Part shown: piece after piece, positions 1-61,029 of the stretch
How positions within the stretch are numbered: the first letter of the stretch is position 1
Layout: each line of letters begins with the position of its first letter
DNA from: an uncultured Planctomycetaceae bacterium
GTDB lineage: Bacteria > Planctomycetota > Phycisphaerae > SM23-33
NCBI GenBank assembly: GCA_964625865.1
Contig: CAZVEV010000002.1
Span: 1-61,029, forward strand
Length of the DNA stretch: 61,029 bases
Direction: 5' to 3'
The notes under the pieces: generated by a model
The model's database searches: none
Told to the model about the DNA's origin: nothing
Seen by the model: the letters and a program-made list of their open reading frames with translations, nothing else
Translations under genes and position numbers: made by a program

Positions 1-183
1 GCCCGCGTGGGCCCCCCCCCCCCCCCTTGTCGAGCCCAGAGGCGGCTAGACGCAATGCCAGACCCCTTAGCCGCCTTGCCGGCCGCCTCGCCCTGGTCGG
101 ACATGGCGCTTGGAGCGCATAGTGCTTGGGGTTACGATTGCCTGTCGTTGGGATCGGTGTGCGTGCAGAACAGCGAGGCAGCT

Positions 184-2622
184 ATGCGTCTGAGAACGGT
201 CGTGATGATGATGTCGGTGGCGTTGGCGGCGGGTGCGGTGGACGCGGCTGACGATGGCCCGAAGGCCGCGATCGTGGACGACGTGTCCTACGCGACGGCC
301 CGGGCGCGGGAACTGTGGCGGCCGATGGCGGGATCGGCGGAAGTATCGGCGGTTCAGCAGGGCGGGCGACGGGCGCTGAGGATGCCGTGCACTTTTCGCG
401 GCACGCGGATCGACCGGGCCTCGTGGGACCGCACCGTCGCGCTGGACCTGACGCGGGCCAAGGGGCTGCGGTTTGCGATGCAGTGCGCCGACGCCTCGCC
501 GGTGGGCCACTTCACGGTGTATCTCCGCAGCGGCAAGGGATGGTACAAGGGCGGTTTCAGCGCTCCGCCCGGGCAGGGGTGGGGCCAGGTCACGATCGCC
601 AAGAGCACCATGAGCACCGAGGGCGCCCCGACCGGCTGGGGACGGATCGACGCGATACGCCTCTCCGCGTGGCGCGGCAAGAACGTCGACACGGTGTTCC
701 ACATCGCGGACCTGCGCCTGTACGGACTGGTGACCGGCGGGGTGGTGATCGTCCGAGGCGACCAGGCGCTGACGCGCGGCGCGGGTGAGGCCGAGTCGGT
801 CCGGCGGTACCCGGCCGTCATCGCGGGCATGCTGGACGACGCGGGTCTGGCCAACGTCGTGATGAGCGACAGCGACCTGACCGCGTCGCGGCTGGCCGGC
901 GTCAAGCTGGTCGTCCTGCCGTACAACCCGGTGATGGACGACAGGACGGCGGGCGTGCTGGCGGGGTATCTCAATAAGGGGGGAAAGCTGCTGTCGTGCT
1001 ACCACCTGCCGCGGCGCCTGGCGCCGGTGGTGGGGATCGCGCGGGGCAGGCATATCCGCCAGAAGCGGCCCGGACACTTCGCGTCGATCCGTCCGGTCAC
1101 CGGACTCCTGCCCGGCGCGCCGCAGGCGACGGGGCAGGCCTCGTGGAACATCGGCGCCGCGTCGCCGGTGGCGGGCAAGAGCCGCGTGGCGGCATGGTGG
1201 TACGGGGCGGACGGGCGTACCACGGGTCACGCCGCCGTGGTGGCCAGTGACAATTGCGTGCACCTGACGCACGTGCTGCTTCCCGACGACAGGACGAACA
1301 AGCAGCAGTTCGTACTCGCGATGGTCGGCCAGGCCTCGCCGGGGCTCTGGCGTCAGATCGCGGCCGGGCGAATAACGCGGATCGGCACGTTCGGGCCGTA
1401 TACGGACGTCGCCGCGGCGCGGGCGGGCATCTCGAAACTGGCCGGGGCGTATCGTCCTGCCGTCGAGGCGCTGCAGCGCGGATCGGACCTTGCCGCACGG
1501 GCCAAAAAGGAGGCCTCGGCGGGCGAACACATCGCGGCGGCCGCAACGGCGGGCCGGGCGCGCCGGGCCATGCTCGACGCGTATCTTCGCGCTCGCAAGC
1601 CCGTCGCGGGCGAGCATCGGGCGTTCTGGTGTCACCGTGCGTTCGGCGTGCGCGGCATGACGTGGGACCAGGCGATCAAGACGCTGGCCGATAACGGCTT
1701 CACCGCGATCCTGCCGAACATGTTGTGGGGCCAGACGGCGTTCTATCCGAGCACCGTCCTGCCGGTCTCGCCGCAGGTAGCCGACAAGGGCGACCAGATA
1801 GCCCTCTGCCTGGCCGCCTGCAAGACCTACGGCGTGGCCTGCCACGTGTGGAAGGTCAACTTCAACATGGGGTGGCACGCGAGCAAGAAGACGGCTGCGG
1901 ACATGACCGCCCGGGGGCGGACGCAGGTGGGGTTCGACGGCAAGAGCTATCCGCGATGGCTTTGCCCGTCGCACCCGGACAACCAGGCTCTCGAGATCGC
2001 CTCGATGGTCGAGGTCGCCCGCACCTACGCCGTCGACGGACTGCACTTCGACTACATCCGCTATCCGGGACGCAGCCACTGCTTCTGTGCGGGCTGTCGC
2101 ACGCGGTTCCAGACGTCCGCCGGCGTGACGGTGGCCTGCTGGCCCGCCGACGTGCGGACCGACGCGGCGCTCGAGGCAAAGTGGCTGGACTTCCGCCGGG
2201 CGCAGATCACCGCCGTGGTGGCTGCCGTGGCGACCCAGGCGCGAAAGGTCCGCCCGGGGCTCAAGATCTCCGCGGCGGTCTTCCGCAACTGGCCCGTCGA
2301 CCGCGACGGCGTGGGCCAGGACTGGAAGCTCTGGTGCGAGAAGGGCTACCTGGACTTCGTCTGTCCCATGGACTACACGCCCGACACCGCCCAGTTCGAG
2401 CGGATGGTCACGAGCCAACTCGAGTGGGCCGGCAAGGTGCCCTGCTATCCCGGCATCGGTTTGAGCACGTGGGCCGACGCGGCCGACGTCTGCACGCTGA
2501 TCGACCAGATCGACGTGACCCGCCGCCTCAAGACCGGCGGCTTTACCGTCTTCAACTACTCCACCGCCGAAGCCCGCGACGTCCTGCCGGCCCTGGGCAA
2601 GGGCATGACCCGAAAGCGGTAG
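184..2622 (+). CDS. secreted glycoside-hydrolase-like family 10 (GHL10/DUF187-type) protein
   Basis: ORF 7..2622 trimmed to the ATG at 184, which gives a signal-like N-terminus MRLRTVVMMMSVALAAGAVDA. The C-terminal half has FDYIRYPG, CFCxxC and CPMDYTP motifs typical of GHL10 TIM-barrel proteins. Confidence 0.65.
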   Translation: MRLRTVVMMMSVALAAGAVDAADDGPKAAIVDDVSYATARARELWRPMAGSAEVSAVQQGGRRALRMPCTFRGTRIDRASWDRTVALDLTRAKGLRFAMQCADASPVGHFTVYLRSGKGWYKGGFSAPPGQGWGQVTIAKSTMSTEGAPTGWGRIDAIRLSAWRGKNVDTVFHIADLRLYGLVTGGVVIVRGDQALTRGAGEAESVRRYPAVIAGMLDDAGLANVVMSDSDLTASRLAGVKLVVLPYNPVMDDRTAGVLAGYLNKGGKLLSCYHLPRRLAPVVGIARGRHIRQKRPGHFASIRPVTGLLPGAPQATGQASWNIGAASPVAGKSRVAAWWYGADGRTTGHAAVVASDNCVHLTHVLLPDDRTNKQQFVLAMVGQASPGLWRQIAAGRITRIGTFGPYTDVAAARAGISKLAGAYRPAVEALQRGSDLAARAKKEASAGEHIAAAATAGRARRAMLDAYLRARKPVAGEHRAFWCHRAFGVRGMTWDQAIKTLADNGFTAILPNMLWGQTAFYPSTVLPVSPQVADKGDQIALCLAACKTYGVACHVWKVNFNMGWHASKKTAADMTARGRTQVGFDGKSYPRWLCPSHPDNQALEIASMVEVARTYAVDGLHFDYIRYPGRSHCFCAGCRTRFQTSAGVTVACWPADVRTDAALEAKWLDFRRAQITAVVAAVATQARKVRPGLKISAAVFRNWPVDRDGVGQDWKLWCEKGYLDFVCPMDYTPDTAQFERMVTSQLEWAGKVPCYPGIGLSTWADAADVCTLIDQIDVTRRLKTGGFTVFNYSTAEARDVLPALGKGMTRKR

Positions 2623-2644
2623 AGGCCCGTGTCCCGCCCGGCCT

Positions 2645-3505
2645 CTACTCGATGTACTGCGTTCGGTAGCTGAGCCTGCCGTCGGCGTATTCGTAGATGC
2701 GGAACGAGGCCTGGCGGCCCCAGGCGCCGTCTATGGAGGCCGAGACGTAGAGGGGCACCTTGCCGAGCCAGTGGTGCTCGTCCCGGTGGAAATGGCCGGC
2801 CAGCACGGCGGCGACGTTGTGCGAATTGAGGACTCTGGTCCACTTTGCCCGCAGGTCGGCGGGCCAGCCGTGGTGCATGCGGTTGGAGTAGAAGTCCTTC
2901 ACGCAGGGGGTGTGGTGGAAGACGATCGCGGGCTTGCCCCTGGCCCGCTTCAGGGCGGCGTCCAGTTGCTTGAGCGGGTCGAAGCCCTCCAGCGGGAAAT
3001 CGTCGGCCAGCGGTTCGGTGTAGACGCCTACGAAGGCCACCCCGTTGTACGTCGCTTCGATCAGGAGCTTGCCGTACCGCTTCCGGTAGACCTCCAGCGT
3101 CGCGATGCGGTTGCGGGTGATCACGTCGTGGTTGCCCGGGATGAAATGGAGTGGGGCCTTGAGCTTCTTGAGGGCGGCAAGGCTCTCGTCGACCGTGGGT
3201 TTGTGCATGAGCCGGTTCGACGTGATGTCGCCGGTGTGAATGACGCAGGCGATCTTCATCGGCAGGGCGTTGATCATTTCGACGGCCTTGGCGTTGCGGG
3301 CAGTGTTGCTTCGGCGGCCGAAGTGCGTGTCGGTGATCTGGACGAAATAGAAGGGCCTCTTCGCTTCCGGTGCGGACGCGGCGGGGGTGGGCGCAGCGGT
3401 CTGTCCGCCGCAGGGCAGCATGCACGTCAGCAGGAGGCAGATCCAGACGGCCCAGCGGGCCAGGTGCCGGGTGTGTCTTGCGATGGTGGTCATGTGGTGC
3501 TCCAC
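2645..3505 (-). CDS. secreted metallophosphoesterase (calcineurin-like)
   Basis: Full ORF with a signal-like N-terminus. Motifs: QITDTHFG, HTGDITS, GNHD, HH, GHFHRDE. Confidence 0.8.
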   Translation of the reverse strand: MEHHMTTIARHTRHLARWAVWICLLLTCMLPCGGQTAAPTPAASAPEAKRPFYFVQITDTHFGRRSNTARNAKAVEMINALPMKIACVIHTGDITSNRLMHKPTVDESLAALKKLKAPLHFIPGNHDVITRNRIATLEVYRKRYGKLLIEATYNGVAFVGVYTEPLADDFPLEGFDPLKQLDAALKRARGKPAIVFHHTPCVKDFYSNRMHHGWPADLRAKWTRVLNSHNVAAVLAGHFHRDEHHWLGKVPLYVSASIDGAWGRQASFRIYEYADGRLSYRTQYIE

Positions 3506-3537
3506 AGGTTGTTGCGTGTAAGGTTGGGTGCCGTGGG

Positions 3538-4677
3538 CTATTTCGGGACGGCTTTCAGCGAATCGAGGGCGAACCGTGTGAAGTAGACCCCCTCGTACGC
3601 GTTGCGCTGCCCGGCTTCGTAGAGCAGGCCTATCTTGCCGTCAGGCAAGACGGTCAGGCACGAGTAGGCGGACGGGGCGGGGGTGATGAGTTTGGCGGCC
3701 GGCCAGGTGCGGCCCTCGTCGAAGCTGGCGCGCACGGTCATGTGGTGTCGGCCTCGCTTCGTCGCCGGATTGGAAAACAGCAGCACGCTCTTGCGTCCGG
3801 GCGAGGCGAAGCTGTACCGCAGGAACGAGGCCTGGCAGGTCGATTCGATCAGCGCCTTGTCCTGCGTCGCCCGCGGCCAGGTGGCGCCGCCGTCTGTGCT
3901 TACCGAGATTGACCGCAGCCCGTGCGGGGCGTAGCTGCGCATGTTCATCATCAGCGACCCGTCGGAAAGCTCGGCAACCTGCGACTCGTTGCAGCCGGGG
4001 CGAATCACCCCGCTGCGCCGCCACGTCTTGCCCGCGTCGTCGCTGAGCAGCACGTGCGAGCCATAGCTGTGGTCCTTGTAGCCGCGGTCGGAGTGGTTGG
4101 CGGGGATGACCAGGCGCCCCTTGTGCTTGCCGCGCGTCAACTGGATCCCCACCCCGGGCCCGGTGGCGTACCAGCCCCACCGCTTGAGCCTGCAGGCGGC
4201 GCTGATGTCGACCGGCGTGCTCCAGGTCTTGCCCTCGTCGGTGGACCTGCAGACGAACGGGCGGCGCGTGTCCTTGCTCTTTCCCGCGATGATTGCCCCC
4301 TCGCTGTCGGTCGCGAGGTTCCACGTACTCAGCAGGAGAATCGTACCCGACGCCCGGTCGATCACCGGACACGGATTGCCGCACGTATTCTCGCCGTCCG
4401 TCCAAACCACCTGCAGCGGCCCCCACGTCTTGCCCCCGTCGGTCGAGCGACGAAGCACGGTGTCGATCCTGCCGCGATCCGACCGGCTGGCCCGCGCCTC
4501 GCAGAACGCCAGGACCGTGCCCTTTTTCGTCACGATCAGCGCCGGGATGCGATACGTGTTGTACCCGCCCTTGCCCGCCGCAAACACCGCCTCGCCGGGC
4601 AGGTCGGCGGCGGTCGCCAACGGCGCGCAAACCACCAACCAGACCACCGTCCACAGTCCAACTCTCATTGCGGTCAT
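3538..4677 (-). CDS. exo-alpha-sialidase (BNR-repeat, GH33-like)
   Basis: ORF 3538..4905 trimmed to the ATG at 4677 (MTAMRVGLWTVVWLVVCAPLATA signal). It has a YRIP motif and five Asp-box/BNR repeats (STDGGKTW, STDEGKTW, SDDAGKTW, STDGGATW, SFDEGRTW). Confidence 0.85.
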   Translation of the reverse strand: MTAMRVGLWTVVWLVVCAPLATAADLPGEAVFAAGKGGYNTYRIPALIVTKKGTVLAFCEARASRSDRGRIDTVLRRSTDGGKTWGPLQVVWTDGENTCGNPCPVIDRASGTILLLSTWNLATDSEGAIIAGKSKDTRRPFVCRSTDEGKTWSTPVDISAACRLKRWGWYATGPGVGIQLTRGKHKGRLVIPANHSDRGYKDHSYGSHVLLSDDAGKTWRRSGVIRPGCNESQVAELSDGSLMMNMRSYAPHGLRSISVSTDGGATWPRATQDKALIESTCQASFLRYSFASPGRKSVLLFSNPATKRGRHHMTVRASFDEGRTWPAAKLITPAPSAYSCLTVLPDGKIGLLYEAGQRNAYEGVYFTRFALDSLKAVPK

Positions 4678-4766: not shown

Positions 4767-4942
4767 GAACGTCGATCTGACGATCGACCGCTAAACGCTC
4801 GGCGCCGACGGCGTCTGGCGGGTGCGCCACGCGTTTGCGCCGGGGTCGGAAGGGAACACCGTCTCTGCGCGGAAATACTCTCGGAGCGATATGTGCGTTC
4901 GACATGATTGTTTAGCGGCGGATCGTCAGATCCGCGTTGACG
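4767..4942. repeat. family A MITE-like element (inverted arms GTTTAGCGGTCGATCGTCAGATCGACG)
   Basis: The arm at 4767-4797 is the reverse complement of the arm at 4910-4942. The right arm carries a compensatory variant of the inner hairpin (GCGGATC..GATCCGC instead of GTCGATC..GATCGAC). Confidence 0.7.
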
Positions 4943-6192: not shown

Positions 6193-6248
6193 GAACCCCT
6201 ATCTTGCCCGTCGGATCGGGCAAATGCAAACCTGCGCGCGTGGGGCGC

Positions 6249-6338
6249 GCTGTTTCAGTCAAGCGCTCCGATGCCGCTTGCTTCTTGGCGTCTCCCTCGT
6301 TCGTTAAGAAAGACGCCAAGAAGCAAGCTGCTCCGCGC
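6249..6338 (+). repeat. family B hairpin repeat (GCTTGCTTCTTGGCGTC ... GACGCCAAGAAGCAAGC)
   Basis: The ~19-bp stem arms lie at 6273-6292 and 6312-6331. The flank TGTTTCAGTCAAGCGCTCCGATGC is shared with copy B3. Confidence 0.75.
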
Positions 6339-6372
6339 CGTCGTCGGCGCGATCAGTCGCTCGCGTCTCTCT

Positions 6373-7038
6373 CTACCCGGTCCGCTTGGCGCCGATCTTG
6401 CTCTCCGTGCCGGCCAGCAGGCGGGTGATGTTCGTGCGGTGGCGAATGATGATCAGGGCGGCCATCGCCGCCGCGAACGTGCCCAGCGGCCAGAGCGCCG
6501 CCAGGTCAGCGGCGTTGAACGCGGCGAACAGCCCCACGAACGCCGCCGCCGCGACGATCGAGCCCAGCGAGACGTAGCGGCTGATCGCGGTGACCGCGAT
6601 CCACACGCCAAACGCGCACAGGCCCGGATACGTGAAGTACGGGAACACGCCCAGCACGACGCCGAGGCTGGTGGCCACCCCCTTGCCCCCGCGGAACTTC
6701 AGCCAGAAGCTGAACACGTGGCCCGCGATGGCCCCGAAGGCCACCCCCAGCAGCGATCCCTGCTGGGCGGCGGTGGGCAGTTCGCCCGAGCCGCCGCGGA
6801 CGAGGAAGACCGCTATCAGCACGGGCGCCAGACCCTTGGCCACGTCCAGGGCAAAGCAGATCAGGCCCCATTTCGCACCGATCACCCGCCCGACGTTCGT
6901 CGCCCCCACGTTGCCGGACCCCTTGGACCGCAGGTCCACGTTGTGCAGGCGGGCGATGATCACGCCGAACGGCGTCGAGCCGATCAGGTAGGCCGCCACG
7001 GGCAGCGCAACGAACAGGATCCACGGTGAGTCGATCAT
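6373..7038 (-). CDS. plsY: glycerol-3-phosphate acyltransferase PlsY
   Basis: ORF 6373..7320 trimmed to the ATG at 7038 (MIDSPWILFVALPVAAYLIGSTPFG). Contains the GSGNVGATNVGR motif. The start overlaps the upstream stop as ATGA. Confidence 0.9.
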   Translation of the reverse strand: MIDSPWILFVALPVAAYLIGSTPFGVIIARLHNVDLRSKGSGNVGATNVGRVIGAKWGLICFALDVAKGLAPVLIAVFLVRGGSGELPTAAQQGSLLGVAFGAIAGHVFSFWLKFRGGKGVATSLGVVLGVFPYFTYPGLCAFGVWIAVTAISRYVSLGSIVAAAAFVGLFAAFNAADLAALWPLGTFAAAMAALIIIRHRTNITRLLAGTESKIGAKRTG

Positions 7039-8186: not shown

Positions 8187-9001
8187 GCGGGGCCCTCCGT
8201 GGTGCGCGCCGCCCGCCGGGCGTCGCGCCGCCGCATCTCGTCGACCTTCCGGTCGACGGCGCGGGCGGTGCGGCTGTCCCCGGCGGCGGGAACGTGGGCG
8301 ACGTATCGCGACCGGAACGCCCCCCAGTGGGCGTCCACCCAGGCCGGCGGCATGGAGTACTTCAGTTGGGCCAGATCCTTGACGCGCCAGCGAAAGCGGC
8401 GCCACCGCGGGGCGAACACCCGCGCCAGGTCGATCAGGTACAGGTCGGGTGCGTCGGGGACCTCATGGAGGAAGATGTGGGCGGCATAGAGGTCGCGGTG
8501 GACCCACCCGCCTGCGTGGAACGCGCCGACCAGGTCGCCCAGTGCTTCAGCCAGCGCCCCGCCTCGGGCCGGGTCGCCCGCGAGGTACGCCTCGCCGCAC
8601 CGCTCGAGGGCGTCGCCCGGCACGGCGGTGACGATCACGAAGCTCCGCCGGGCTGTCAGCAGGCCCATCTGCTCGCCGCAGGCCACCGCGCCCATCGTGG
8701 GCACGCCGGCGGCCCCCGCGGCGCGGACGTTGTCAAACTCCACGCGCGCCGGGCTCCGCCGCCCGTAGGTCAGCAGACGGCGAATGCGCTGGTTCAGCGG
8801 CTCGCGGCCGTATCGTTTGAGGTACAGCTCGTGGGTCGCCCCGTCATCGCCGGTCAGGTCCAGCCGCGTCCGCCTCCGCGAGCCCAGCCCCGGCTTGTCC
8901 AGGTCCGTTCCGCCCTGCCACGCGAACGCGCCGTCGACGCTGTCGAGCCCGGCCTGGCGCAGGGCGCCCGCCAGGTTCGGGTCCAGTTGAGCCGCACTCA
9001 T
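8183..9001 (-). CDS. lipopolysaccharide kinase (Kdo/WaaP/InaA) family protein
   Basis: Has the HRDLYAAHIFL catalytic-loop-like motif and YLIDLARV. It sits between two LPS-type glycosyltransferase genes. Confidence 0.7.
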   Translation of the reverse strand: MSAAQLDPNLAGALRQAGLDSVDGAFAWQGGTDLDKPGLGSRRRTRLDLTGDDGATHELYLKRYGREPLNQRIRRLLTYGRRSPARVEFDNVRAAGAAGVPTMGAVACGEQMGLLTARRSFVIVTAVPGDALERCGEAYLAGDPARGGALAEALGDLVGAFHAGGWVHRDLYAAHIFLHEVPDAPDLYLIDLARVFAPRWRRFRWRVKDLAQLKYSMPPAWVDAHWGAFRSRYVAHVPAAGDSRTARAVDRKVDEMRRRDARRAARTTEGPA

Positions 9002-10083: not shown

Positions 10084-10124
10084 GGGCGCATTGTAACGGT
10101 GGAGCGTAAAGAACACCATGGCGT

Positions 10125-10244
10125 CAAACGCCCACGGGCTCCGCCCGTGGGGTTCTGGCGAATGAAGCGCGCGGTGTGGCGTGCATGATGGAAAGACAGA
10201 GTCATCGTTGTCGATACCCCACGGGACGGTGCCCGTAGGCGTTT
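10125..10244. repeat. family E inverted hairpin pair (AAACGCCCACGGGCTCCGCCCGTGGGG)
   Basis: Arms at 10125-10151 and 10217-10244 are reverse complements of each other. Each arm is itself a hairpin (CCCACGGG/CCCGTGGG). Confidence 0.7.
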
Positions 10245-10270
10245 GCCTGTTTCGCGCCGGAAGGGGGCGT

Positions 10271-11131: not shown

Positions 11132-11200
11132 CACAGTGCCCCCATTAGGCCCGACGCGCCGGGCTTTGTCAATCCGTAGCGGTATTCGCCCAGCCAGACC

Positions 11201-11310
11201 CCCTGGCACGCACGAGGCCGCGGCCTAAGCGACGATCTCCCGGCCGAGGGGGTAAAGGGTGTTTTCGCCAGCGGCACGCGTCTACGGGGCGGCCTGACGC
11301 CCTGGCCCGT
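11201..11310. repeat. family H ~110-bp repeat (copy 1)
   Basis: CAGCCAGACCCCCTGGCA...GGCCTAAGCGACGATCTCCCGGCCGAGGGGG...CTACGGGGCGGC matches 30143-30262 closely. Confidence 0.7.
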
Positions 11311-14392: not shown

Positions 14393-14444
14393 GCGGAGAT
14401 GTGATGTGGGGTGGCACGTTCCTTCCTGGCGGATGTCCACAACG

Positions 14445-14640
14445 ACAGAAAGAGGACGGGGATTACACGGATTAAGGGATTCGGGGGATTCAAGATGCGA
14501 GGTCGTTCAGGTTTGACTATGCGCAGCGTGAATCACACAGAACGCGGCGAGCAAGCTCGCCCGCTAGACATGGAACACACGCCGACATCTCAATCCCTCT
14601 AATCCCTTACTCCGTGTAATCCCCGTCCTCCGTCTGTTCT
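14445..14640. repeat. MITE-like element with ~45-bp imperfect terminal inverted repeats (family K)
   Basis: The left arm ACAGAAAGAGGACGGGGATTACACGGATTAAGGGATT matches the reverse complement of 14591-14640. A central palindrome GGCGAGCAAGCTCGCC is present. Confidence 0.65.
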
Positions 14641-14793
14641 CGTGGGCGTTTGGCGCCTCGCCAGAGAATCAGGTCGCATGCTGATCCGTCGCGAAATGGA
14701 TTGGCGTTTGCCCCTGACAGGTCCGCCCGATACAATGCCGCCCGGCGGCCGCCCGGCGGTCGCTCATCGGAAACCCCCAACGGACACCGAATC

Positions 14794-19040: not shown

Positions 19041-19113
19041 CGAAACAACGGACATGAAGCAGACGGATAACTGACGGTCATCGACGCGTAACGATCCGTG
19101 TGTCAACACGAGT

Positions 19114-40724: not shown

Positions 40725-40761
40725 TCTGAGACGATCGCTCCTCACTGCCCGGCGAGCAGGT

Positions 40762-42930: not shown

Positions 42931-42947
42931 ATTGTCGTTATCTCCAT

Positions 42948-46522: not shown

Positions 46523-46563
46523 CCGAAGCCCGCGGGTGCATGCATCCGCGGGCTTCGGTGTTT
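46523..46563 (+). terminator. rho-independent terminator after the transporter gene
   Basis: 13-bp stem CCGAAGCCCGCGG / CCGCGGGCTTCGG with loop GTGCATGCAT, followed by TGTTT. Confidence 0.6.
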
Positions 46564-47021: not shown

Positions 47022-47928
47022 GTTCCCATCCGTTGGGGGCCAGTTCCTCGTCGCGACCGTCGGGGCCGACGATCCGGACGGTGAGGTCGGCCTGCACCAG
47101 CCCGATCCGCGCGATGGGCACCTCGCAGATCGGCTCGGCGACGATCGCGTCGGCCTGGTCCGGCGGGAGCGTGAACAGCAGTTCGTAGTCCTCGCCGTCG
47201 CCGAGGGCCGCGCCCAGCGGGTCGTCCGCCCGCAGGCCCGTCGCGTCGGTGTGGATCGGTATGCGGTCAGCCTCGATGATTGCCCCCACGCCGGAGGCCT
47301 CGCACAGGCGCCGCAGGTCGACGGCCAGCCCGTCCGATACGTCGATCATCGCGTGGACGTCGCAGCGGTCGGCCAGGGCGTTGGCCTCGGCAATACGCGG
47401 GGTAAACGACAGGTGACGCTCGGTGTGCCACGCCCCCCCGAACCCGCCGGTCACGCAGATCGCGTCACCGACCTGAGCGCCGCTGCGGAGCACAGGACTG
47501 TGTCCGTCTGCGGGGCGGGCCAGCACTGTCACGTTGATCGCCAGCGCCCCGTCCCACGAGGCCACGTCCCCGCCGACCAAAGGACAGCCAAACGCATCGC
47601 CCGCAGCGCGCAGGCCGCGGTAGATCTCCTCGGCCTGGGCCCGGGCAAAGCCGGGCGGCAGGGCCACTGACGCGACGGCCGCCACCGGCACGGCCGCCAT
47701 GGCCGCCACGTCCGACAGGCTGCGAGCCATCGCCTTTCGCCCCGCGGCTCGCGGCCCACAGTCGGCCCAGACGAAATGCGTCCCGTCGAGCACCTGGTCT
47801 ATGGTCACCAGCAGGCCCTGCTGGCCGCAGGCCACGACGGCCATATCGTCCCCGGGCCCGACCGGCACGGCGGCGGGGTCAAAGTCGCTCTGGGAGCGAA
47901 TCCAGTCTATGAAAGGCAGCTCTTTCAA
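47011..47928 (-). CDS. thiL: thiamine-monophosphate kinase
   Basis: AIR-synthase-like fold motifs (GDDMAV, DQVLDGTHF, GGDV). Its 3' end overlaps tsaE by 11 nt. Confidence 0.85.
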   Translation of the reverse strand: MKELPFIDWIRSQSDFDPAAVPVGPGDDMAVVACGQQGLLVTIDQVLDGTHFVWADCGPRAAGRKAMARSLSDVAAMAAVPVAAVASVALPPGFARAQAEEIYRGLRAAGDAFGCPLVGGDVASWDGALAINVTVLARPADGHSPVLRSGAQVGDAICVTGGFGGAWHTERHLSFTPRIAEANALADRCDVHAMIDVSDGLAVDLRRLCEASGVGAIIEADRIPIHTDATGLRADDPLGAALGDGEDYELLFTLPPDQADAIVAEPICEVPIARIGLVQADLTVRIVGPDGRDEELAPNGWEHET

Positions 47929-47964
47929 TTTTAGATTTTAGATTTACGATTGTAGATTGAACGG
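47928..47964. repeat. family G low-complexity repeat (TAGATT/GATTG units)
   Basis: ATTTTAGATTTTAGATTTACGATTGTAGATTGAACGG between thiL and argH. Confidence 0.55.
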
Positions 47965-49424: not shown

Positions 49425-49511
49425 GACATTTTCTCCTTACGCTCGGAAACGTCGTCCGTGGCAGCGGAAGTGATGGTAGACCTGTCTGCCGGGACTGTCA
49501 ACATCATGCCC

Positions 49512-49616
49512 GGCGCCGTGGTTTGACGCAAAGCGGCACCCACGATTCCCGAAAGGAGACAACCTGCCTGTCGGCAGGCAGGCGTGGTTGCCGCATCACG
49601 TCAAACCACGACACCC
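49512..49616. repeat. family D inverted pair
   Basis: GGCGCCGTGGTTTGACGCAAAGCGGCACCCACG (49512-49544) and the reverse-oriented copy at 49583-49616 flank the palindrome CTGCCTGTCGGCAGGCAGG. Confidence 0.65.
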
Positions 49617-49646
49617 CCGCGTCGAAACACGGCGTGCCGAAGTATC

Positions 49647-50340: not shown

Positions 50341-50485
50341 CTTGTCGTTCGTTCCACGTTTAACGGGCGAGCTTGCTCGCCGCGTTCCTCGTTCGATCCA
50401 CGCAGCGTGTTCTCTGCCTGTCGACGTCGCAAGCGACGCCGCACGCGGAGCAAGCTCCGCCGCTAAACGTGGAAGGAACGACAGG
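50341..50485. repeat. family A-variant MITE-like element
   Basis: The arm CTTGTCGTTCGTTCCACGTTTAACGG (50341-50366) pairs with GCCGCTAAACGTGGAAGGAACGACAGG (50459-50485). Internal palindromes include GCGAGCTTGCTCGC and GGAGCAAGCTCC. Confidence 0.65.
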
Positions 50486-51214: not shown

Positions 51215-51260
51215 GATTTCCGATTGCAGATTGTAGATTCGGAATCGCAAATCTACAATG
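51215..51260. repeat. family G low-complexity repeat with internal palindrome
   Basis: GATTTCCGATTGCAGATTGTAGATTCGGAATCGCAAATCTACAATG in the rnc/def divergent region. ATTGTAGATT pairs with AATCTACAAT. Confidence 0.55.
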
Positions 51261-53644: not shown

Positions 53645-53645
53645 C

Positions 53646-53673
53646 GGGTGCCGTAGCTTGACGCGAAGCGGCC
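53646..53673 (+). repeat. family D repeat (3' part diverged)
   Basis: GGGTGCCGTAGCTTGACGCGAAGCGGCC starts 2 nt after the stop codon. Confidence 0.55.
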
Positions 53674-53759
53674 TGAGGCGTTATCTCGCGGCCGACACCC
53701 TTGAGGGTGTTTGGGCGCATTGAGGGCGGCCAGGGGTCTCCAAACGCGTCAGGTTAGCG

Positions 53760-53833
53760 GTAGGGCGTGCAACGTGTCTGCACGCGGAATGGACACGCCG
53801 CTCGTCCCGCGTGCAACGAGTTGCACGCCCTAC
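53760..53833. repeat. family C 74-nt structured palindromic element
   Basis: It has the same outer and inner stems as 33539-33612. Only the central loop differs. Confidence 0.75.
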
Positions 53834-53841
53834 GTCCGCGT

Positions 53842-55422
53842 CTACTTCTGCAACGGCTTGGGAAGGTCGCCGCCGGTCATGTAGCGCCCGGCGCTCAGCC
53901 TGTCGCCCAGTTCGACGGCCCAGTAGTGCGTGCCGAATTTCAGCAGAAGCCTGCCCGTGCTGAAGACCGTGGGCTTCTTCGGATGGCGCATTCGGCGATT
54001 ATCGACCATCACGATCACGCCGCCGGCGAGGCGGTCGCCCGAGCGATACGCCTTCATGGCCTTGGTGCGTTCGTCGCGAATGGTGACGGTGGACTTCCCG
54101 CCGAACTGCATCGCCGAGACCAGACTCAACTGCTCGCCCCCGACGGGCTTGGGCTTGGGCTTGGGTTTCGGTTTCGGCTTGGGTTTGGGCTTCGGCGCAG
54201 TCGGGGCGACCGCCTGGAATACGTTCCGTTTGACGACGGGGTCGTAGGTCTTTCGCTCGGGGGCATCGAGTTTCGCCCCCGGCATTCTGGCGTCGGGGGC
54301 CGGGAAGGGCAGGGCCTCGGCCGCGTCATGGTCGAGCGCGAGCGTTTCGTATCTCAGCGAGACGCCCACGCTGTTGTCGGCCTGGTCGGCACGGAGGGAG
54401 AGGGCGGCCATCCGCTGCAGATACGGCGCGCGAGACACCAGGAACAGCAGGTCGACCACGTCCGACAGCTTGCCCCGCGCGCGGAGCGTCCAGCCGACGA
54501 CGCGATAGGCCCCGCGCTGCTGCGCCCCGTCCAGCGGCTTGAGCTGAAACTCGCTCTGCGTGTTGACGCCGCTGCGGCGGGCGGCGTCGGTCAGGTGGGC
54601 CTGGGCCTTGCTCGAGACGTCGGACGCCTCGGCGGCGAATGTTACCGCAGCCAGGGCGCCAAGGCGCGTCTTGAGGGTTTCCCCCTCGGCGGCCTGGTCC
54701 CTCAGGCCCTGAACGTCTTTCCGCAGGCCCTCGGCTTGGTGACGCAGGGCCGCGATCTGTTCGGGAATGGGCGCCAGCGCGGTCTTCGGCGGTGGTGCAG
54801 CCCCGGGCCGACTTGTCGTCTTGACCGCCGGTGCAGGCGCAAGTGGGGCGTCGTCCCGCCTGGCTGCCGCGGCCGGCGGGGTGGTGATGTCCAACGATGC
54901 CGCATGGGCGTACTTCACCGCCAGCGCGTCGCTCATCGAACGGATCGGACCGGGTCTGACCGTGTAGCCGGCGCCGGCCAGGCCCGTCGAGAACTGCTCG
55001 ATCACGTCGGTTGACCGTGAGCGAAGAGACAGGCGTATCGTATCGGCGCCGGAGGTGGTCAGAGAAACGAGGAAGGCGTCGGCGGCGGGGGGAAACGCGG
55101 CGCTGAGCTTGGCCAGGTGATCCAGCCAGTCCGTGCCTCCGGCGGCCCAGGCCTCGATGGCCCCGACGCGGCTGCGCATCGCACCGATACGCTTCACGTC
55201 GGCCTCGAGCGCCTCGCGAGTGGCAAGGAGGTCTTTGACCGTCTGGGTGGCCTCGGCGAGTTTGCGTCGGGCCAGTTCCTTCGCGGCGGCCTCAGCCCGG
55301 CGAGCCTCGGCCAGACGCGCTGCCTCGGCCTCGCTCGGCCCCGTGTCCTCGGGTGCGCCGTCGGAACAACCGACAAGCGCGATCCCCAGAAGCGTCATCG
55401 CAAGGAGCCATTTTGTTCTCAT
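53842..55422 (-). CDS. lipoprotein with PilN-like, PilO/GspM-like and PilP-like regions joined by a (KP)9 linker
   Basis: Trimmed to MRTKWLLAMTLLGIALVGC, preceded by AGGAG. It has coiled-coil stretches, two alpha/beta modules and KPKPKPKPKPKPKPKPKP. The C-terminal beta domain is SLVSAMQFGGKSTVTIRDERT...GDRLAGGVIVMVD. The domain calls are inference. Confidence 0.6.
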   Translation of the reverse strand: MRTKWLLAMTLLGIALVGCSDGAPEDTGPSEAEAARLAEARRAEAAAKELARRKLAEATQTVKDLLATREALEADVKRIGAMRSRVGAIEAWAAGGTDWLDHLAKLSAAFPPAADAFLVSLTTSGADTIRLSLRSRSTDVIEQFSTGLAGAGYTVRPGPIRSMSDALAVKYAHAASLDITTPPAAAARRDDAPLAPAPAVKTTSRPGAAPPPKTALAPIPEQIAALRHQAEGLRKDVQGLRDQAAEGETLKTRLGALAAVTFAAEASDVSSKAQAHLTDAARRSGVNTQSEFQLKPLDGAQQRGAYRVVGWTLRARGKLSDVVDLLFLVSRAPYLQRMAALSLRADQADNSVGVSLRYETLALDHDAAEALPFPAPDARMPGAKLDAPERKTYDPVVKRNVFQAVAPTAPKPKPKPKPKPKPKPKPVGGEQLSLVSAMQFGGKSTVTIRDERTKAMKAYRSGDRLAGGVIVMVDNRRMRHPKKPTVFSTGRLLLKFGTHYWAVELGDRLSAGRYMTGGDLPKPLQK

Positions 55423-55512: not shown

Positions 55513-55534
55513 TTAACTGTATGCATCCCGTGAC

Positions 55535-55568
55535 GCGTGCCGTGGCTTGACGCGAAGCGGCAACCACG
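55535..55568 (+). repeat. family D repeat
   Basis: GCGTGCCGTGGCTTGACGCGAAGCGGCAACCACG. Confidence 0.7.
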
Positions 55569-55854
55569 TGGAGGCGCGATAGTGTGCGACCCTCTTGGGC
55601 CTGTTGCCCAAAGCCTTTCCTGGGCGACCATGGTATAACCCGGGCAATGGGATGAAGAGGCATTTGCTCAGCGTGACCGGGGCAGGTTGGACGCGGCGTC
55701 AGACGAGATGTGGCGGCAGTTGCAGGGAATTCTCAAGCCGGAAGACGGCTCCTGACGGGCGAGCCGTCGTACATGCCCTTCCCTCTCGTTCGGTAGCCAT
55801 GCCGATTCAACCCGAGAACACGCCCCCTACGGACCCGCAGTCGAGCCGGTCCAT

Positions 55855-55887
55855 TGAAAAAGCCCCACCGGGCGAACCGGTGGGGCT
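55855..55887 (-). terminator. rho-independent terminator of the PEP-CTERM gene 55915-56658
   Basis: The minus strand reads AGCCCCACCGG-TTCGC-CCGGTGGGGCT followed by TTTTTC, 28 nt after the stop. Confidence 0.75.
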
Positions 55888-55914
55888 TGGTGTGTCTGAA
55901 GATCGTGGATCGAG

Positions 55915-56658
55915 CTACCGCTTCCGCGTTCGTCGCAGCCCCAGCAGGCCAACGGCGGCCAGGGCGAGGGTGGTCGGTTCGGGAACCTCGGTGGCCAGCC
56001 GAACTTCGCCCAGACCGTAACGGTCGCCGCCACCAGTGATACCGGGTTGACCCAAGTAGTTGTTGTCAATGCGAACAGCGACATACTGAGCTGTTTGCGA
56101 CGAGCCGAAACTAAAGAACTGGGCATAGTTGGCAGAAGCAACATTACCGGGAATATCGTCCATCGTACCGGACAGGTCTGCCGTTTCTGTGCCAAAATCA
56201 AATGAGTTCCCTTCAGCGTTTGTGTGCAGGATTACGCGAAAATCACGGGTATGATTTCCATGATCGGTGGTGAGGGGTCCACCGTTGTTGCCATACTGCC
56301 ACAGGATAATCGATCCCACCGCAGTGTCCGCTCCAAGATCAAAGACAAACTCTGGATTTCCTGATCCCGTCCCGCGCGTCCATGACTCAGCGTGACCGTC
56401 GCCGCTTAGTTCGGCGACCGTGTTCATCGTGTTGGCCAAAGACTCACCGGTATTCAGGGCAACGCCAGTCCCGGCAGGCCGTTGAAGGCTGGCGGCGGCG
56501 AAACCGGCATTGTCATCCAACAAATACAAGTGGCTTGAGCCGGCATCGCCGGTGATGTCAGTGGTCACCGATGATGGTTTGATGATGGCAGCGGAAGCCA
56601 TGCCAACGTGGACGACTGCGATTGCAACGATTGCACAAATGATGGTTCGCTGTTTCAT
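55915..56658 (-). CDS. PEP-CTERM-anchored secreted protein (galactose-binding/discoidin-like domain?)
   Basis: Signal peptide MKQRTIICAIVAIAVVHVGMASA. C-terminal VPEPTTLALAAVGLLGLRRTRKR. Confidence 0.75.
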   Translation of the reverse strand: MKQRTIICAIVAIAVVHVGMASAAIIKPSSVTTDITGDAGSSHLYLLDDNAGFAAASLQRPAGTGVALNTGESLANTMNTVAELSGDGHAESWTRGTGSGNPEFVFDLGADTAVGSIILWQYGNNGGPLTTDHGNHTRDFRVILHTNAEGNSFDFGTETADLSGTMDDIPGNVASANYAQFFSFGSSQTAQYVAVRIDNNYLGQPGITGGGDRYGLGEVRLATEVPEPTTLALAAVGLLGLRRTRKR

Positions 56659-56941: not shown

Positions 56942-57018
56942 GGGCCAACCTGAAGAAAAACGACGCCGTTCGGTTCAGCCATTGGGTCGTTGTCTTGCCC
57001 GCAGTCGAGCCGGTCCAT

Positions 57019-57051
57019 TGAAAAAGCCCCACCGGGCGAACCGGCGGGGCT
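57019..57051 (-). terminator. rho-independent terminator of the PEP-CTERM gene 57079-57720
   Basis: Same hairpin as 55855-55887 with one A-C mismatch, followed by TTTTTC. Confidence 0.7.
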
Positions 57052-57078
57052 TGGTATGCGTGCTGATTCCGGATCGGA

Positions 57079-57720
57079 TTACCGTCTTCGCCTTCGCAGC
57101 AGCCCCAGCAGGCCGACCGCGGCCAGGGCGAGGGTGGCCGGTTCAGGCGTTGGCGTGCCGATCACATCGACCTCACGCCAGACGTTCCCGTTGCCTATCG
57201 TCGAGTGATCGAGACGAAGGGCATCGACTCCCGTTCCGATGAGCCCGCCGCCGTTATCGAACAGATGAGACTCTGCGAAGATGCCACTGACGACCCCAGT
57301 GCTCACCGGCCCGCCGGTGATGGTCACCGACGTCCATGACGGATCGCCCACGAAGCTGATTTCCAATGCGTACTGGTGTCCCGCCCGGTTATCGTTCCAT
57401 CCCGAATAGACGTCGATCTGCTGGATGTCGTACCCCAGCGTGTTCGTGCTGACATCGAGGAAGTACTCGAGCGCGTCCCCGCTGATAATCCCGCTATGCA
57501 CATTGGCCCCCCAGTTACCCTGGCTCACGTCACCGTCGACGTCCCAGTCGGTCGGGGCGTTGTCATTTCCGGCGCCTTTCGAGGCCAGAGACATCTGCAG
57601 CAGGTCCGTCGTCGACGCTGTCGGCTCGGTGGTGCTCGTTGAGGTGGTGTAAACGATCGCGGCCTGTGCGGTCGTGCCCACCAGGCCCAGTGCCAGTAGT
57701 GTGACAATCATGGTTCGCAT
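57079..57720 (-). CDS. PEP-CTERM-anchored secreted protein
   Basis: Trimmed to MRTMIVTLLALGLVGTTAQA. C-terminal TPEPATLALAAVGLLGLLRRRRR. Confidence 0.75.
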   Translation of the reverse strand: MRTMIVTLLALGLVGTTAQAAIVYTTSTSTTEPTASTTDLLQMSLASKGAGNDNAPTDWDVDGDVSQGNWGANVHSGIISGDALEYFLDVSTNTLGYDIQQIDVYSGWNDNRAGHQYALEISFVGDPSWTSVTITGGPVSTGVVSGIFAESHLFDNGGGLIGTGVDALRLDHSTIGNGNVWREVDVIGTPTPEPATLALAAVGLLGLLRRRRR

Positions 57721-57892
57721 CTTGAAACTCCTGCGGTGATGGAGAAGCCGCCAAAGCTCACCCATCTGCAACGATTCCTCGTAACCGTTCAGGCGAAGTG
57801 TCCGGCCGGTCTTTGTTCCTCACTCGGCTGCAAAAGGCATCCACTCTACCTCGCCAGGCTCTGTTGGTCCCGGTGACCAACTCTTATCAGAA

Positions 57893-58029: not shown

Positions 58030-58224
58030 ATGCCGTTCCGCATCTTCCCGTTCGCCAGTGGCGGAAGTACCTCGGATGCATCAGGAAGACCGGTCACCGA
58101 GCGTCAGAGAACCGGTCACCGCTTTGGGCGTCGAGACAAAGAAAAAGCCTCCAAGCTCTCGTTCTTGAAGGCCTTATCTCACTACGCCCGACAGGATTCG
58201 AACCTGCAACTTCTTGCTCCGGAG
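58030..58224. repeat. 195-bp perfect direct repeat, copy 1 (contains the displaced 3' half of tRNA-Arg)
   Basis: By eye it is identical base for base to 58871-59065 (offset 841). Confidence 0.85.
58183..58224 (-). pseudogene. partial tRNA-Arg(CCG): anticodon loop to 3' end only
   Basis: The minus strand reads CTCCGGAGCAAGAAGTTGCAGGTTCGAATCCTGTCGGGCGTA. Sequence 5' of the anticodon loop is unrelated to a tRNA. Confidence 0.8.
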
Positions 58225-58870
58225 AGAACCCAGCGGTCACTTTCATACCTGCAACTTGTGCTGATAACACCTTCTTTTCACGGATGTTATGAGAAGACAA
58301 GAGGCGAAAGCTGAGTGTCCAATTGTTGTACAGTTTGGAACCGTTTGGAACGAAAACCGGTCACCAAACCGGTCACCGATCAAGGGCTGTTTTTCTTCTT
58401 GGCGACCCATGTGAAGTACAATCTTCTCTTGCCCCGAGCCAACTGGCTGATGTAGGATTTCTGAGAACGCCCCACGACGGTTAGCGTTGAGAGAACTCCG
58501 ACGGTGCCTGTCCTCGACAGGTTCCGCAGGCGTTTTCACGGGTTTTCGGCAAATGGGTGCCGAGAGTATGACTCCGAGAAGAAGCATCAGCCCCAAACAT
58601 CAGAGAATCATCGATCTCCTGACCGCCGAGGATCTGACGGTCCGTCAGGCCGCTGAACGGCTCGGCATGTCAACCAGTTCAGTCTACTACGCCTGTAACA
58701 AGTACAAGCTCAAGTACCGTAATGCTCCCAGCAGGAATCGGATTCCGGAGTTGGTGGATCGAGAATGGTTGTATCAGAAGGTTGCGGTCGAGGGGCTGAA
58801 CTACAAGGAGATTGGGGATCTGATGGGTTGCTCTCGCCAGTACGTCCACCAGAAGGTCAACGAGTTCGGC
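58225..58870. mobile_element. 646-bp AT-richer insert between the att-like repeats (remnant or miniature integrative element)
   Basis: Bounded by the 195-bp repeats. Its composition is visibly less GC-rich than the surroundings. It carries an HTH ORF and AACCGGTCACC motifs. No integrase is present. Confidence 0.6.
58568..58870 (+). pseudogene. double helix-turn-helix ORF, apparently 3'-truncated
   Basis: MTPRRSISPKHQRIIDLLTAEDLTVRQAAERLGMSTSSVYYACNKY...LNYKEIGDLMGCSRQYVHQKVNEFG. The frame has no stop inside the insert and runs on through the repeat, antisense to the tRNA, until 59350. Confidence 0.4.
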
Positions 58871-59065
58871 ATGCCGTTCCGCATCTTCCCGTTCGCCAGT
58901 GGCGGAAGTACCTCGGATGCATCAGGAAGACCGGTCACCGAGCGTCAGAGAACCGGTCACCGCTTTGGGCGTCGAGACAAAGAAAAAGCCTCCAAGCTCT
59001 CGTTCTTGAAGGCCTTATCTCACTACGCCCGACAGGATTCGAACCTGCAACTTCTTGCTCCGGAG
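58871..59065. repeat. 195-bp perfect direct repeat, copy 2 (part of the intact tRNA-Arg plus 153 bp downstream flank)
   Basis: Identical to 58030-58224. Confidence 0.85.
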
Positions 59066-59096
59066 GCAAGCACTCTATCCATTGAGCTACGGGCGC
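59024..59096 (-). tRNA. tRNA-Arg (anticodon CCG)
   Basis: The minus strand reads GCGCCCGTAGCTCAATGGATAGAGTGCTTGCCTCCGGAGCAAGAAGTTGCAGGTTCGAATCCTGTCGGGCGTA. It folds as a cloverleaf with a 7-bp acceptor stem, GTTCGAATC T-loop and anticodon loop CTCCGGA. CCA is not encoded. Confidence 0.85.
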
Positions 59097-59100: not shown

Positions 59101-59133
59101 GATTGCGGAATTCGGATTGCGGATTGCGGATTT
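59101..59133. repeat. family G low-complexity repeat
   Basis: GATTGCGGAATTCGGATTGCGGATTGCGGATTT lies immediately 5' of the tRNA gene. Confidence 0.55.
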
Positions 59134-59252
59134 GCGCCGCGCGGGCAATCCATGTCCCACGGGAGGCATTGTCGCGGGCGAGAGAGGCAGTGTCAAGAGG
59201 AATCGGGACAGGGTGAATGTCGGGCGTTGCTTTCCTGTGCGCGCCAGGGCGG

Positions 59253-59339
59253 AGCCGCGGCGTATCGCCGCGGTGCCGTTTGTCCTACGTATGAATACCG
59301 TGCTCGAAGGCAACGGCACGGCGGCGATACGCCGCGGCT
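59253..59339. repeat. long hairpin (28-bp stem, 1 mismatch, ~31-nt loop), family J
   Basis: AGCCGCGGCGTATCGCCGCGGTGCCGTT (59253-59280) pairs with AACGGCACGGCGGCGATACGCCGCGGCT (59312-59339). Confidence 0.65.
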
Positions 59340-59360
59340 TCGCCCTGTGACGCGACGGAC

Positions 59361-59389
59361 GTTCGACCTTCGACCTTGGACTTTCGACC
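59361..59389. repeat. family F repeat
   Basis: GTTCGACCTTCGACCTTGGACTTTCGACC. Confidence 0.55.
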
Positions 59390-59510
59390 TGCCTGTCCAA
59401 GCAGACTGGAAAACGCCGATGCCTTGCCGTAGGGTATGTCGCGCCGGAGAGAGGGCGGGCAGCGCGGCGACGATAGGACTGAGCGGGCGGAACAGATAAG
59501 GAACGGACAG

Positions 59511-60911: not shown

Positions 60912-60933
60912 TGTCTCCCGACGTGCGTCGGGA

Positions 60934-60963
60934 GAGTCGAAGGTCAAAGGTCGAAGGTTCACA
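60934..60963. repeat. family F repeat
   Basis: GAGTCGAAGGTCAAAGGTCGAAGGTTCAC, preceded by a small hairpin CTCCCGAC-GTGC-GTCGGGAG right after the pgi stop. Confidence 0.55.
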
Positions 60964-60968
60964 GGGCC

Positions 60969-61005
60969 GGTGCCGTGGGCTGCGGAGCGCGGCGGAGCAA
61001 CCACG
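60969..61005 (+). repeat. family D repeat
   Basis: GGTGCCGTGGGCTGCGGAGCGCGGCGGAGCAACCACG is almost identical to 27076-27113. Confidence 0.7.
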
Positions 61006-61029
61006 CGGAGCCCTGCCACATGCCGCGTG

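Follow-up and report, generated by a model that had tools for sequence, protein, structure and literature searches.

The intergenic DNA of contig CAZVEV010000002.1 (assembly GCA_964625865.1) carries many short structured repeats, and these repeats, together with the enzymes that might have spread them, are the subject of this analysis. The stretch analysed, hereafter the window, is 61,029 nt long, makes up the entire contig and has a guanine-plus-cytosine (GC) content of ~67%. By exact protein match, the contig was located only in metagenome assemblies from JGI and ENA, and its sequence words were present only in marine metagenome runs. The host is an uncultured marine member of the Planctomycetota, probably of the Phycisphaerae. 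A gene map based on third-position GC and Pfam matches assigned 87% of the window to coding DNA, with 7.7 kb of intergenic sequence (12.7% of the window). Several of the repeat families, which are designated here by letters, resemble repetitive extragenic palindromic (REP) units, and an inverted pair of such units that folds as one long hairpin is referred to as a REPIN.

Hairpin repeats between the genes

An ungapped search for inverted repeats with arms of at least 14 nt and loops of up to 150 nt recovered 19 of them in the window, whereas 30 dinucleotide shuffles contained 1.6 on average and never more than 4. Seventeen of the 19 were located in the intergenic 12.7% (binomial P = 8e-14), and representative doublets, folded as single-stranded DNA, were much more stable than their shuffles (z -5.9 to -11). 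The repeats described in the initial annotation are real, and its account of them as intergenic, dispersed and of more than one kind was supported. It had also placed them in nearly every gap longer than about 80 nt; among the 30 gaps that reach 80 nt, 21 (70%) contain at least one element, and 38% of the intergenic bases fall within elements. All four junctions at which it had set two families side by side are present at the positions it gave. Coding DNA, which it had described as apparently free of repeats, is nearly so: the repeat pairs found by aligning the window to itself with BLAST were non-coding, with three exceptions, namely an internal domain duplication in uvrA, a duplication of the 3' ends of the two PEP-CTERM genes, and a single arm overlapped by an open reading frame (ORF) that had been called too long.

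The placement of the repeats relative to gene orientation was also uneven. The REP-like families occupied 14 gaps and none of the eight purely divergent ones (hypergeometric P ~0.002, hand-computed). They were located only in gaps that hold a gene 3' end, and several of them abut stop codons.

The hairpin elements are built from small units, which measure 29 nt in family C (stem of 6-7 bp), 38 nt in S, ~30 nt in D and ~35 nt in each arm of A and L. An unpaired GT[AG]G head is present in C (GTAG), D (GTAG in one copy, GTGG in the others) and S (GTGG). Families C, A, L, D, E and J show the REPIN layout, in which an inverted pair of units with a spacer forms one long hairpin. Single units of A, D and S also occur in the window, and both full copies of C are doublets. 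The depths quoted below were obtained by aligning contigs of the best-matching metagenome run to the repeat-bearing stretches at 80% likeness and summing their word depth.

The family C unit reads GTAGGGCG-TGCAAC-YY-GTTGCA-CGCGGAA and is present in the window as two inverted units with the heads outward. The doublet at 33536-33614, in a convergent gap, folded with a z of -9.65 and reached a depth of up to 1537 in its right arm, against 4.3 in the flank; the contigs matching it end sharply at 33536-39 and 33612-16. A second copy at 53757-53833, 86% identical to the first, also lies in a convergent gap (z -6.18). The degenerate C-like doublet at 33355-33431 has the head GTCG and the tail CGCGGAA or CGCGGGA, and its depth is ~4x that of the flank.

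Families A and L have a common head, CCAYGTTTARCGG, and different stems, TCGATC/GATCGA and GCGAGC/GCTCGC respectively. One doublet of A is located at 42932-43101 (core 42948-43086), where each arm consists of the head CCAYGTTTAGCGG and the hairpin TCGATC-gtca-GATCGA; it gave a z of -10.95 and a depth of 51-117 against ~4.5, and the matching contigs end at 42932/42948 and 43086/43100. Another doublet at 4767-4942 has the variant stem GGATC/GATCC in one arm, and a single plus-strand unit at 20604-20666 adjoins a copy of family B (depth 109 against ~4). The L doublet at 50343-50483 combines the A-type head CCACGTTTARCGG with the stems GCGAGC/GCTCGC and CGGAGC/GCTCCG (z -5.88), with a depth of up to 295 against 6.7 in its right arm. 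An L-type single unit was also found within repeat H, at 14540-14594 on the minus strand.

A similar relationship was observed between families D and S, which have a common head, GGTGCCGTRG, and a common tail, GCAACCACG, around inner hairpins that differ. The D doublet at 49505-49625 is built from the unit GCCGTGG-TTTGACGCAAAGCGGCA-CCACG (z -7.48; depth 149 against 6.2), and single plus-strand units of D are located at 53645-53672, with a GTAG head (GCCGTAGCTTGACGCGAAGCGGC), and at 55534-55575, with a GTGG head. Family S is a 38-nt single REP. Its copy at 27076-27113 on the plus strand, GGTGCCGTGG-GCTGC-ggagc-GCAGC-GGAGCAACCACG, falls in a bin with a depth of 364 against ~5; the flanks of the 22-24 contigs that match it are unrelated and diverge at 27076 and 27113. 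A further plus-strand unit lies at the contig end (60969-61005). The two copies previously reported at stop codons were both recovered as S: a diverged minus-strand unit at 25865-25905, which begins directly after the TGA stop of a YgiT-like gene, and a 14-nt plus-strand fragment of the head at 3526-3539, GGGTGCCGTGGGCT, which overlaps a stop codon.

The remaining hairpin families are of varied build. Family B is a plain hairpin of 18-20 bp, AGCTTGCTTCTTGGCGTC ... GACGCCAAGAAGCAAGCT, located at 6246-6380 (with conserved flanks; z -5.94), at 20681-20765, and at 33445-33538, where it abuts family C (z -7.43; depth 41-58 against 4.3). The family E unit, AAACGCC-CACRGGC-tcc-GCCYGTG-GGGTATC, forms a doublet at 19105-19270 with perfect 31-nt arms, AAACGCC-CACAGGC-tcc-GCCTGTG-GGGTATC (depth 12-32 against ~5), and another at 10120-10250 with the compensatory stem change CACGGGC/GCCCGTG (z -5.91). 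Two low-copy elements complete the set: J, a 103-nt nested palindrome at 59245-59347 (z -10.39; depth 13.5 against 5.7), and N, a hairpin with perfect 15-bp arms, GCGGCATCTTGCCGC, in a convergent gap at 24284-24389 (z -4.66). When the Rfam covariance models were run on the window, no repeat matched a family and only a tRNA-Arg reached its gathering score. A microRNA match on family C, the only extra match at E <= 1, was dismissed as spurious (34.6 bits against a 168-bit threshold).

These comparisons changed the count of families. The initial annotation had listed ten or more palindromic families and described them as unrelated, which does not hold for A and L, with their shared head, or for D and S, which share both head and tail. 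Nor are all of the repeats palindromic, as Fx folds with a z of +0.4 and +0.7, and F and G are period-7 tandem arrays. What stands is some six hairpin families that are dispersed (A/L, B, C, D/S, E and J, the last at low copy) and the low-copy N; the rest of the list comprises the non-palindromic Fx, two or three microsatellite types, and a single-locus pair of hairpins beside a Y1 gene.

Dispersal beyond the window and the partners of family C

The depth analysis showed that most of the families extend well beyond their copies in the window. Because metagenome depth pools all organisms, the ratios of depth to flank are upper bounds on copy number: ~60-360x for C, ~110x for Fx, ~70x for S, 44x for L, 24x for D, 11-30x for A, ~10-14x for B, ~10x for H, 2-6x for E, and 2-3x for J and N. 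Over the 401-nt junction of B and C, 146 metagenome contigs aligned, most of them over C. Contigs that match C, S and A run into unrelated sequence at fixed end points, which argues for discrete units inserted at many sites. The distribution of the repeats thus points to their mobility.

Four of the families were also recovered on a separate contig. A scan of viral contigs with the arm of family A matched a contig from the sample of the window, the full version of which (L195) is 17.7 kb long, has a GC content of 68.2% and was found in the same samples as the contig of the window. Doublets of C were located on it at 1-57 and 8811-8888 and a doublet of A at 70-199, together with one arm of N (6280-6304) and one unit of E (15516-15555). 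L195 is phage-like, with a Gp13-like major capsid protein and genes that are mostly unannotated, and is either a prophage of the organism of the window or a phage with the same REPs. Viral-contig matches to B and Fx were rejected as chance similarity in low-GC phage coding DNA.

Repeats of this kind could in principle be artefacts of assembly, through chimeric or collapsed joins, or could reflect chance similarity. The contig was assembled from a metagenome, and all independent assemblies of the region stop ~120 nt past pgi, at a heptamer array and an S unit (60912-61029), which indicates that such repeats break short-read metagenome assemblies. However, seven independent contig copies (five from JGI, two from ENA) are 99.9-100% identical across the repeat-bearing region, the shuffles produced 1.6 long inverted repeats where the window has 19, and the same families are present in L195. 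We therefore consider an artefact or chance origin hardly credible. The initial annotation had itself named confinement to the window and assembly artefacts as grounds for abandoning its claim. Both were checked: most families stand at 3-360x the depth of the flank, four recur in L195, and the seven copies agree across the repeats.

Family C provided a link between a repeat and an enzyme. A scan of metagenome contigs for GTGCAACNNGTTGCACGCCCTAC, an exact pattern that favours conserved copies, returned at least 120 contigs, with a GC content of 42-71% and none from the organism of the window. Among these listed contigs, conservation spans the unit, with the GTAG head at one end and the CGCGGAA tail at the other, but does not extend into the flanks; of 110 arms, 81 are unpaired, and a few partners retain the head and tail around a different stem. 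In at least five of the contigs the C units adjoin a gene for a canonical REP-associated tyrosine transposase (RAYT), with the motifs HLH and YIHANP. Four of these proteins were scanned with the model NF047646 and scored 177, 164, 133 and 80+88 bits (cutoff 80), while that of L098 was identified by homology search only.

Inverted C units were located on both sides of the RAYT gene in L068, L162 and L104. This layout, the REPtron, defines a REP-RAYT pair (PMC2817692, PMC3733652), and C is therefore one half of such a pair in those organisms. In L127, three direct C units spaced 114 nt apart lie beside the RAYT gene; a CRISPR-like origin was considered for them and rejected, as the spacing and the adjoining RAYT fit a REP cluster. 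The RAYTs beside C are 53-73% identical to each other and their REPs are identical or nearly so. A Pfam tally of 103 ORFs of the family C loci gave housekeeping families only and no taxonomic signal. Neither the text nor the supplements of PMC3733652 contained the family C sequence. For D, S, A and L, no REPtron was recovered. A contig with family C from another organism (L122) also holds two 38-nt S units at 1189-1285, 78-89% identical, which indicates that S, like C, is not confined to the organism of the window.

A tentative reading, which we rate as clearly short of probable, starts from C as one 29-nt REP that is retained nearly unchanged in many lineages and is also present in a phage-like contig from the samples of the window. 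If the lineages with family C span orders or phyla, C would be an unusually widely conserved REP, which would imply either that REPtrons have spread horizontally, possibly by phages, or that its sequence is frozen by a host function. Linked to this is the idea that one RAYT would tolerate any stem between a fixed head and tail. If one RAYT does tolerate any stem, the stem-swapped sisters (the C variants, A/L and D/S) would need no enzyme for each family.

Origin of the repeats

The most probable reading of these results is that several families of the REP/REPIN type have come to occupy the intergenic DNA. Each unit combines an unpaired, conserved head with a GC-rich hairpin and a short tail, and is present singly or as an inverted pair that folds as a hairpin of 75-170 nt. 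Tyrosine transposases of the HUH/Y1 class (RAYTs) would excise and insert these units as single-stranded DNA. The enzyme would read the head and the foot of the hairpin, cut and rejoin, which would leave no target-site duplication. We infer the Y1 step from the established biology of RAYTs and of IS200/IS605 elements (PMC2817692, PMC8266576).

Within this scheme, family C, with its GTAG head, is, on the evidence of other organisms, the cognate REP of a canonical RAYT clade, and a similar enzyme probably acts on D and S, whose heads are GTRG. The families A/L (TTAG), B, E and the low-copy palindromes may depend on other Y1 enzymes or may be decaying relics. New families appear to arise through replacement of the inner stem under a fixed head and tail, as the pairs A/L and D/S and the variants of C suggest. 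Selection would bar the elements from coding DNA and from divergent gaps that hold only promoters, so that they would pile up downstream of genes. The initial annotation had proposed several mobilisation systems, or one that is unusually permissive. More than one system is plausible, since the heads differ (C has GTAG, D and S have GTRG, A and L have TTAG, and B and E have none), and several enzymes, or one tolerant enzyme, may act in the genome of the window.

Several observations weigh against this reading. The window holds no canonical RAYT gene, and no transposase was found adjoining A/L, B, E or J. The head is TTAG in A and L, and B, E and J are without a GT[AG]G head, so these families were not classed as GTAG REPs. 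The seven independent contig copies showed no insertion polymorphism. The depth ratios are upper bounds, and family C is certainly common to other organisms. The abundant repeat Fx, which has neither palindrome nor structure, is left unexplained by a REP model.

Some of the elements could instead be miniature inverted-repeat transposable elements (MITEs), that is, deletion derivatives of DDE-type insertion sequences (IS) moved in trans through their terminal inverted repeats. Several elements of 100-210 nt with long inverted arms (B, H, J, and A with its outer extension) have the expected form. However, no target-site duplication was found at any of the 16 element ends examined. The arms of A, C, D, E, L and J are themselves small hairpins with a conserved head, as in REPINs and unlike the terminal repeats to which a transposase binds, and arms also stand alone, as in A at 20604, D at 53645 and 55534, and S. 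A DDE transposase was absent among the window proteins scanned, which were a subset of the genes, and family C is paired with a Y1 RAYT. Mobilisation as MITEs is accordingly improbable in our view.

The placement of the elements also invites an account based on host function, in which the hairpins would mainly be terminators, stabilisers of mRNA 3' ends or protein-binding sites, and in which their likeness would result from selection or gene conversion. The restriction of the REP-like families to gaps with a gene 3' end, where several abut stops, fits such roles, and stabilisation of RNA 3' ends and service as binding sites are among the known functions of REPs (PMC3733652). Constraint is suggested by family C, which is almost letter-perfect in contigs of 42-71% GC though the accompanying RAYTs are 53-73% identical. 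On the other hand, terminator-like sites, defined as a GC-rich stem followed by a T-run, were not enriched in the window (12 against 9.7 expected), and the repeat units lack T-tails. The terminator-like cases were limited to the inner hairpin of D (49562-49583) and to a local hairpin of 16-18 bp between convergent genes at 46523-46558 (z -6.65), the latter being the sole element with a T-rich tail of this kind and belonging to no family. Near-identical units with sharp ends and unrelated flanks point to insertion events. A host role is compatible with an origin by transposition and competes with it only as an account of how the elements are kept, not of how they spread. It is possible that the elements serve as RNA 3' structures; in the three metatranscriptomes of the source study, the share of words of the organism was 0.00. 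As the explanation for the families, host function is unlikely, though we give it marginally more weight than MITEs.

A colonisation by REP/REPIN families would have clear precedents. A strain of the fluorescent pseudomonads or stenotrophomonads typically carries several classes of REP and an average of two to three RAYTs (PMC3686654). GTAG families coexist in O. terrae and R. baltica (Di Nocera 2013, PMC3733652), and R. baltica has abundant tyrosine transposase genes with matching flanking repeats (PMC3733652). The coexistence of families in the window resembles these cases and those of S. maltophilia and P. fluorescens. Several families per genome with family-specific REPtrons are on record, R. 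baltica included (PMC3733652, PMC3686654, PMC2817692). The earlier suggestion that the diversity of the window lies far beyond that of known genomes does not survive this comparison, and a multi-family REP/REPIN landscape is already known in bacteria, being found here in an unstudied lineage.

The correspondence extends to the structure of the units. Known REPs include degenerate GTRG heads, head-to-head dimers and stem sub-families, and lie between convergent or same-direction genes (PMC3733652). Like the GTAG REPs and REPtrons (Nunvar 2010, PMC2817692; PMC3733652), the units of the window measure 29-38 nt, with a GT[AG]G head and a GC-rich stem of 5-8 bp. Some stand alone and others form dimers with the heads outward, 20-100 nt apart; they fall into sub-families by stem and are placed downstream of genes, between convergent or same-direction genes, and in other organisms inverted units of family C flank a canonical RAYT gene. 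They differ in that the host is an uncultured Phycisphaerae-like planctomycete and in that the 29-nt unit of C recurs at 42-71% GC beside RAYTs that are 53-73% identical. The inverted units of C, A, L, D, E and J, with a variable spacer and one hairpin, likewise correspond to REPINs (Bertels and Rainey 2011, cited in PMC3733652). The differences are that at least five types of doublet are present on one 61-kb contig and that family C, elsewhere, is mostly single (81 of 110 arms unpartnered), so that the doublet, which in a REPIN is the unit that replicates, is here a candidate for that role. What is less ordinary is the recurrence of one REP across very different genomes and in a phage-like contig, as well as the non-palindromic Fx.

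To our knowledge, studies of REPs and RAYTs have been made almost entirely on Proteobacteria. The window extends a comparably rich REP load to an uncultured marine planctomycete, with about six dispersed hairpin families and elements that take up more than one third of the intergenic DNA. The REP-RAYT pair of family C would be a good substrate for testing whether a RAYT recognises the head and tail or the stem. The repeats also break assemblies and seed false ORF starts, which matters for the binning and annotation of Planctomycetota.

The Y1 gene, other repeats and neighbouring loci

The window itself contains an atypical Y1 (HUH) transposase-like gene of 201 amino acids at 40762-41367 on the minus strand. 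Its HUH and Tyr motifs, NHYH (NHYHVL) and YRYTLTQ (AYRYTLTQ), have predicted catalytic roles. The protein scored 53.2 bits against NF047646, under the cutoff of 80, and 17.1 bits against Pfam Y1_Tnp, under the cutoff of 23, and shares ~22% identity with the canonical RAYTs encoded on L068 and L127. It belongs to a clade with 56 homologous loci, 46-74% identical, in metagenome-assembled genomes (MAGs) of Planctomycetota whose labels include Phycisphaerae, Planctomycetaceae and Pirellulales. These loci showed no conserved synteny, and no copies of C, B or E were found in 662 kb around the homologues of named Planctomycetota.

The gene is bracketed by two composite hairpins. In the left one (40543-40727), a small hairpin, CTGGATCGCTGAAGCGACCAG, forms the inverted ends, and the loop has an array of 27 nt x 3.9 (40569-40674); its depth was 4-5 in two bins and 17.8 in a third (~1-4x the flank). 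The right one (41437-41645) contains a tandem array of 19 nt x 3.8 (41542-41612) and has a depth of 4-5.3. As five of the six bins are at single-copy depth (4-5.3), these hairpins are not a dispersed family. The small hairpin of their ends, with the core ATCGCTGAAGCGACC, adjoins the Y1 gene in at least six relatives (L013, L022, L038, L018, L019 and L021).

These features bear on two statements of the initial annotation. What it had treated as a RAYT-flanking family is essentially single-copy outside its own locus, as judged by depth. Its observation of a transposase next to a single family is correct to the letter and yet misleads, as this family is not dispersed and the enzyme belongs to an atypical Y1 clade, while C pairs with a canonical RAYT elsewhere. 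Nothing in the data links the Y1 gene to the abundant families.

The Y1 protein resembles TIRYT or class 3 TnpAY1 proteins (PMC3733652; Quentin 2018, PMC6006769) more closely than a RAYT that spreads REPs. It has in common with them a short length, the HUH and Tyr motifs, and flanks formed by long composite hairpins in place of GTAG REPs. The flanking repeats of some TIRYTs are likewise non-dispersed (PMC3733652), and the clade is found across Planctomycetota with atypical flanking structures, as in class 3. The motifs differ in detail, being NHVH, W[TA] and YV[VI]xEQ in class 3 (PMC6006769) against NHYH and YRYTLTQ here. Class 3 has a 5' CnGA foot, whereas in the window CCGA lies 3' of the small hairpin, and the loops of the hairpins in the window carry the 27-nt and 19-nt tandem arrays.

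Repeat Fx is dispersed, abundant and non-palindromic, and folds no better than shuffles. One copy is located at 30140-30269 on the plus strand (core 30172-30260; z +0.73), with a depth of 711 against 6.3 over 30166-30269 (~110x), and the other at 11188-11293, also on the plus strand and 80% identical (z +0.43). Both have the same orientation and lie in divergent gaps, ~100 nt upstream of a plus-strand gene. Rather than a REP, Fx could be a leader or a promoter element.

Families F and G, like the arms of H, consist of tandem arrays with a period of 7 (to 9), which are AT-richer than the genome. Family F forms an inverted pair of period-7 arrays, GGTCGAA/GGTCAAA, at 18166-18247, with more arrays at 59358-59390 and 60934-60963. 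Family G is a plus-strand array of GATTGCG at 59101-59133 (depth ~1200 against 5.7), with related arrays at 47928-47964 and 51215-51260. H, at 14437-14645, has long inverted arms of short GGATT-type repeats with one L-type REP inside (depth 38-48 against ~4). The heptanucleotide simple-sequence repeats of large GC-rich genomes are likewise period-7 and AT-richer than the genome, and differ in that some arrays of the window are inverted pairs able to fold. The folding of such pairs (18166-18247, z -6.38) accounts for their earlier reading as palindromic families.

Further features were observed among the genes of the window. At positions 12-26, 15 consecutive C's lie within the open 5' end of a GHL10-like ORF and may be an assembly-end artefact. 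A 537-aa minus-strand gene contains an in-frame 6-nt tandem array at 54145-54196 (GGGCTT x 8.7), which codes for a (PK)n run near the C-terminal third. Between 55600 and 59000 the GC content drops to ~59% against 67%, and this stretch encloses genes for two paralogous PEP-CTERM proteins on the minus strand (55915-56658 and 57079-57771), whose 3' ends are duplicated together with the downstream DNA (55834-55983 and 56998-57147, 85% identical). A tRNA-Arg(CCG) gene is located at 59024-59096 on the minus strand, and its 3' part is included in a perfect 195-nt direct repeat (58030-58224 and 58871-59065). The two copies enclose a 646-nt insert that codes for a small helix-turn-helix protein (58559-58870), and the arrangement suggests att sites left by an integrated element that has since decayed. 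Finally, a DUF4258 gene followed by a YgiT/MqsA-type zinc-finger gene at 25328-25867 is likely a toxin-antitoxin pair; a second metagenome contig is ~82% identical over 25327-25572 and has a higher depth (15.7).

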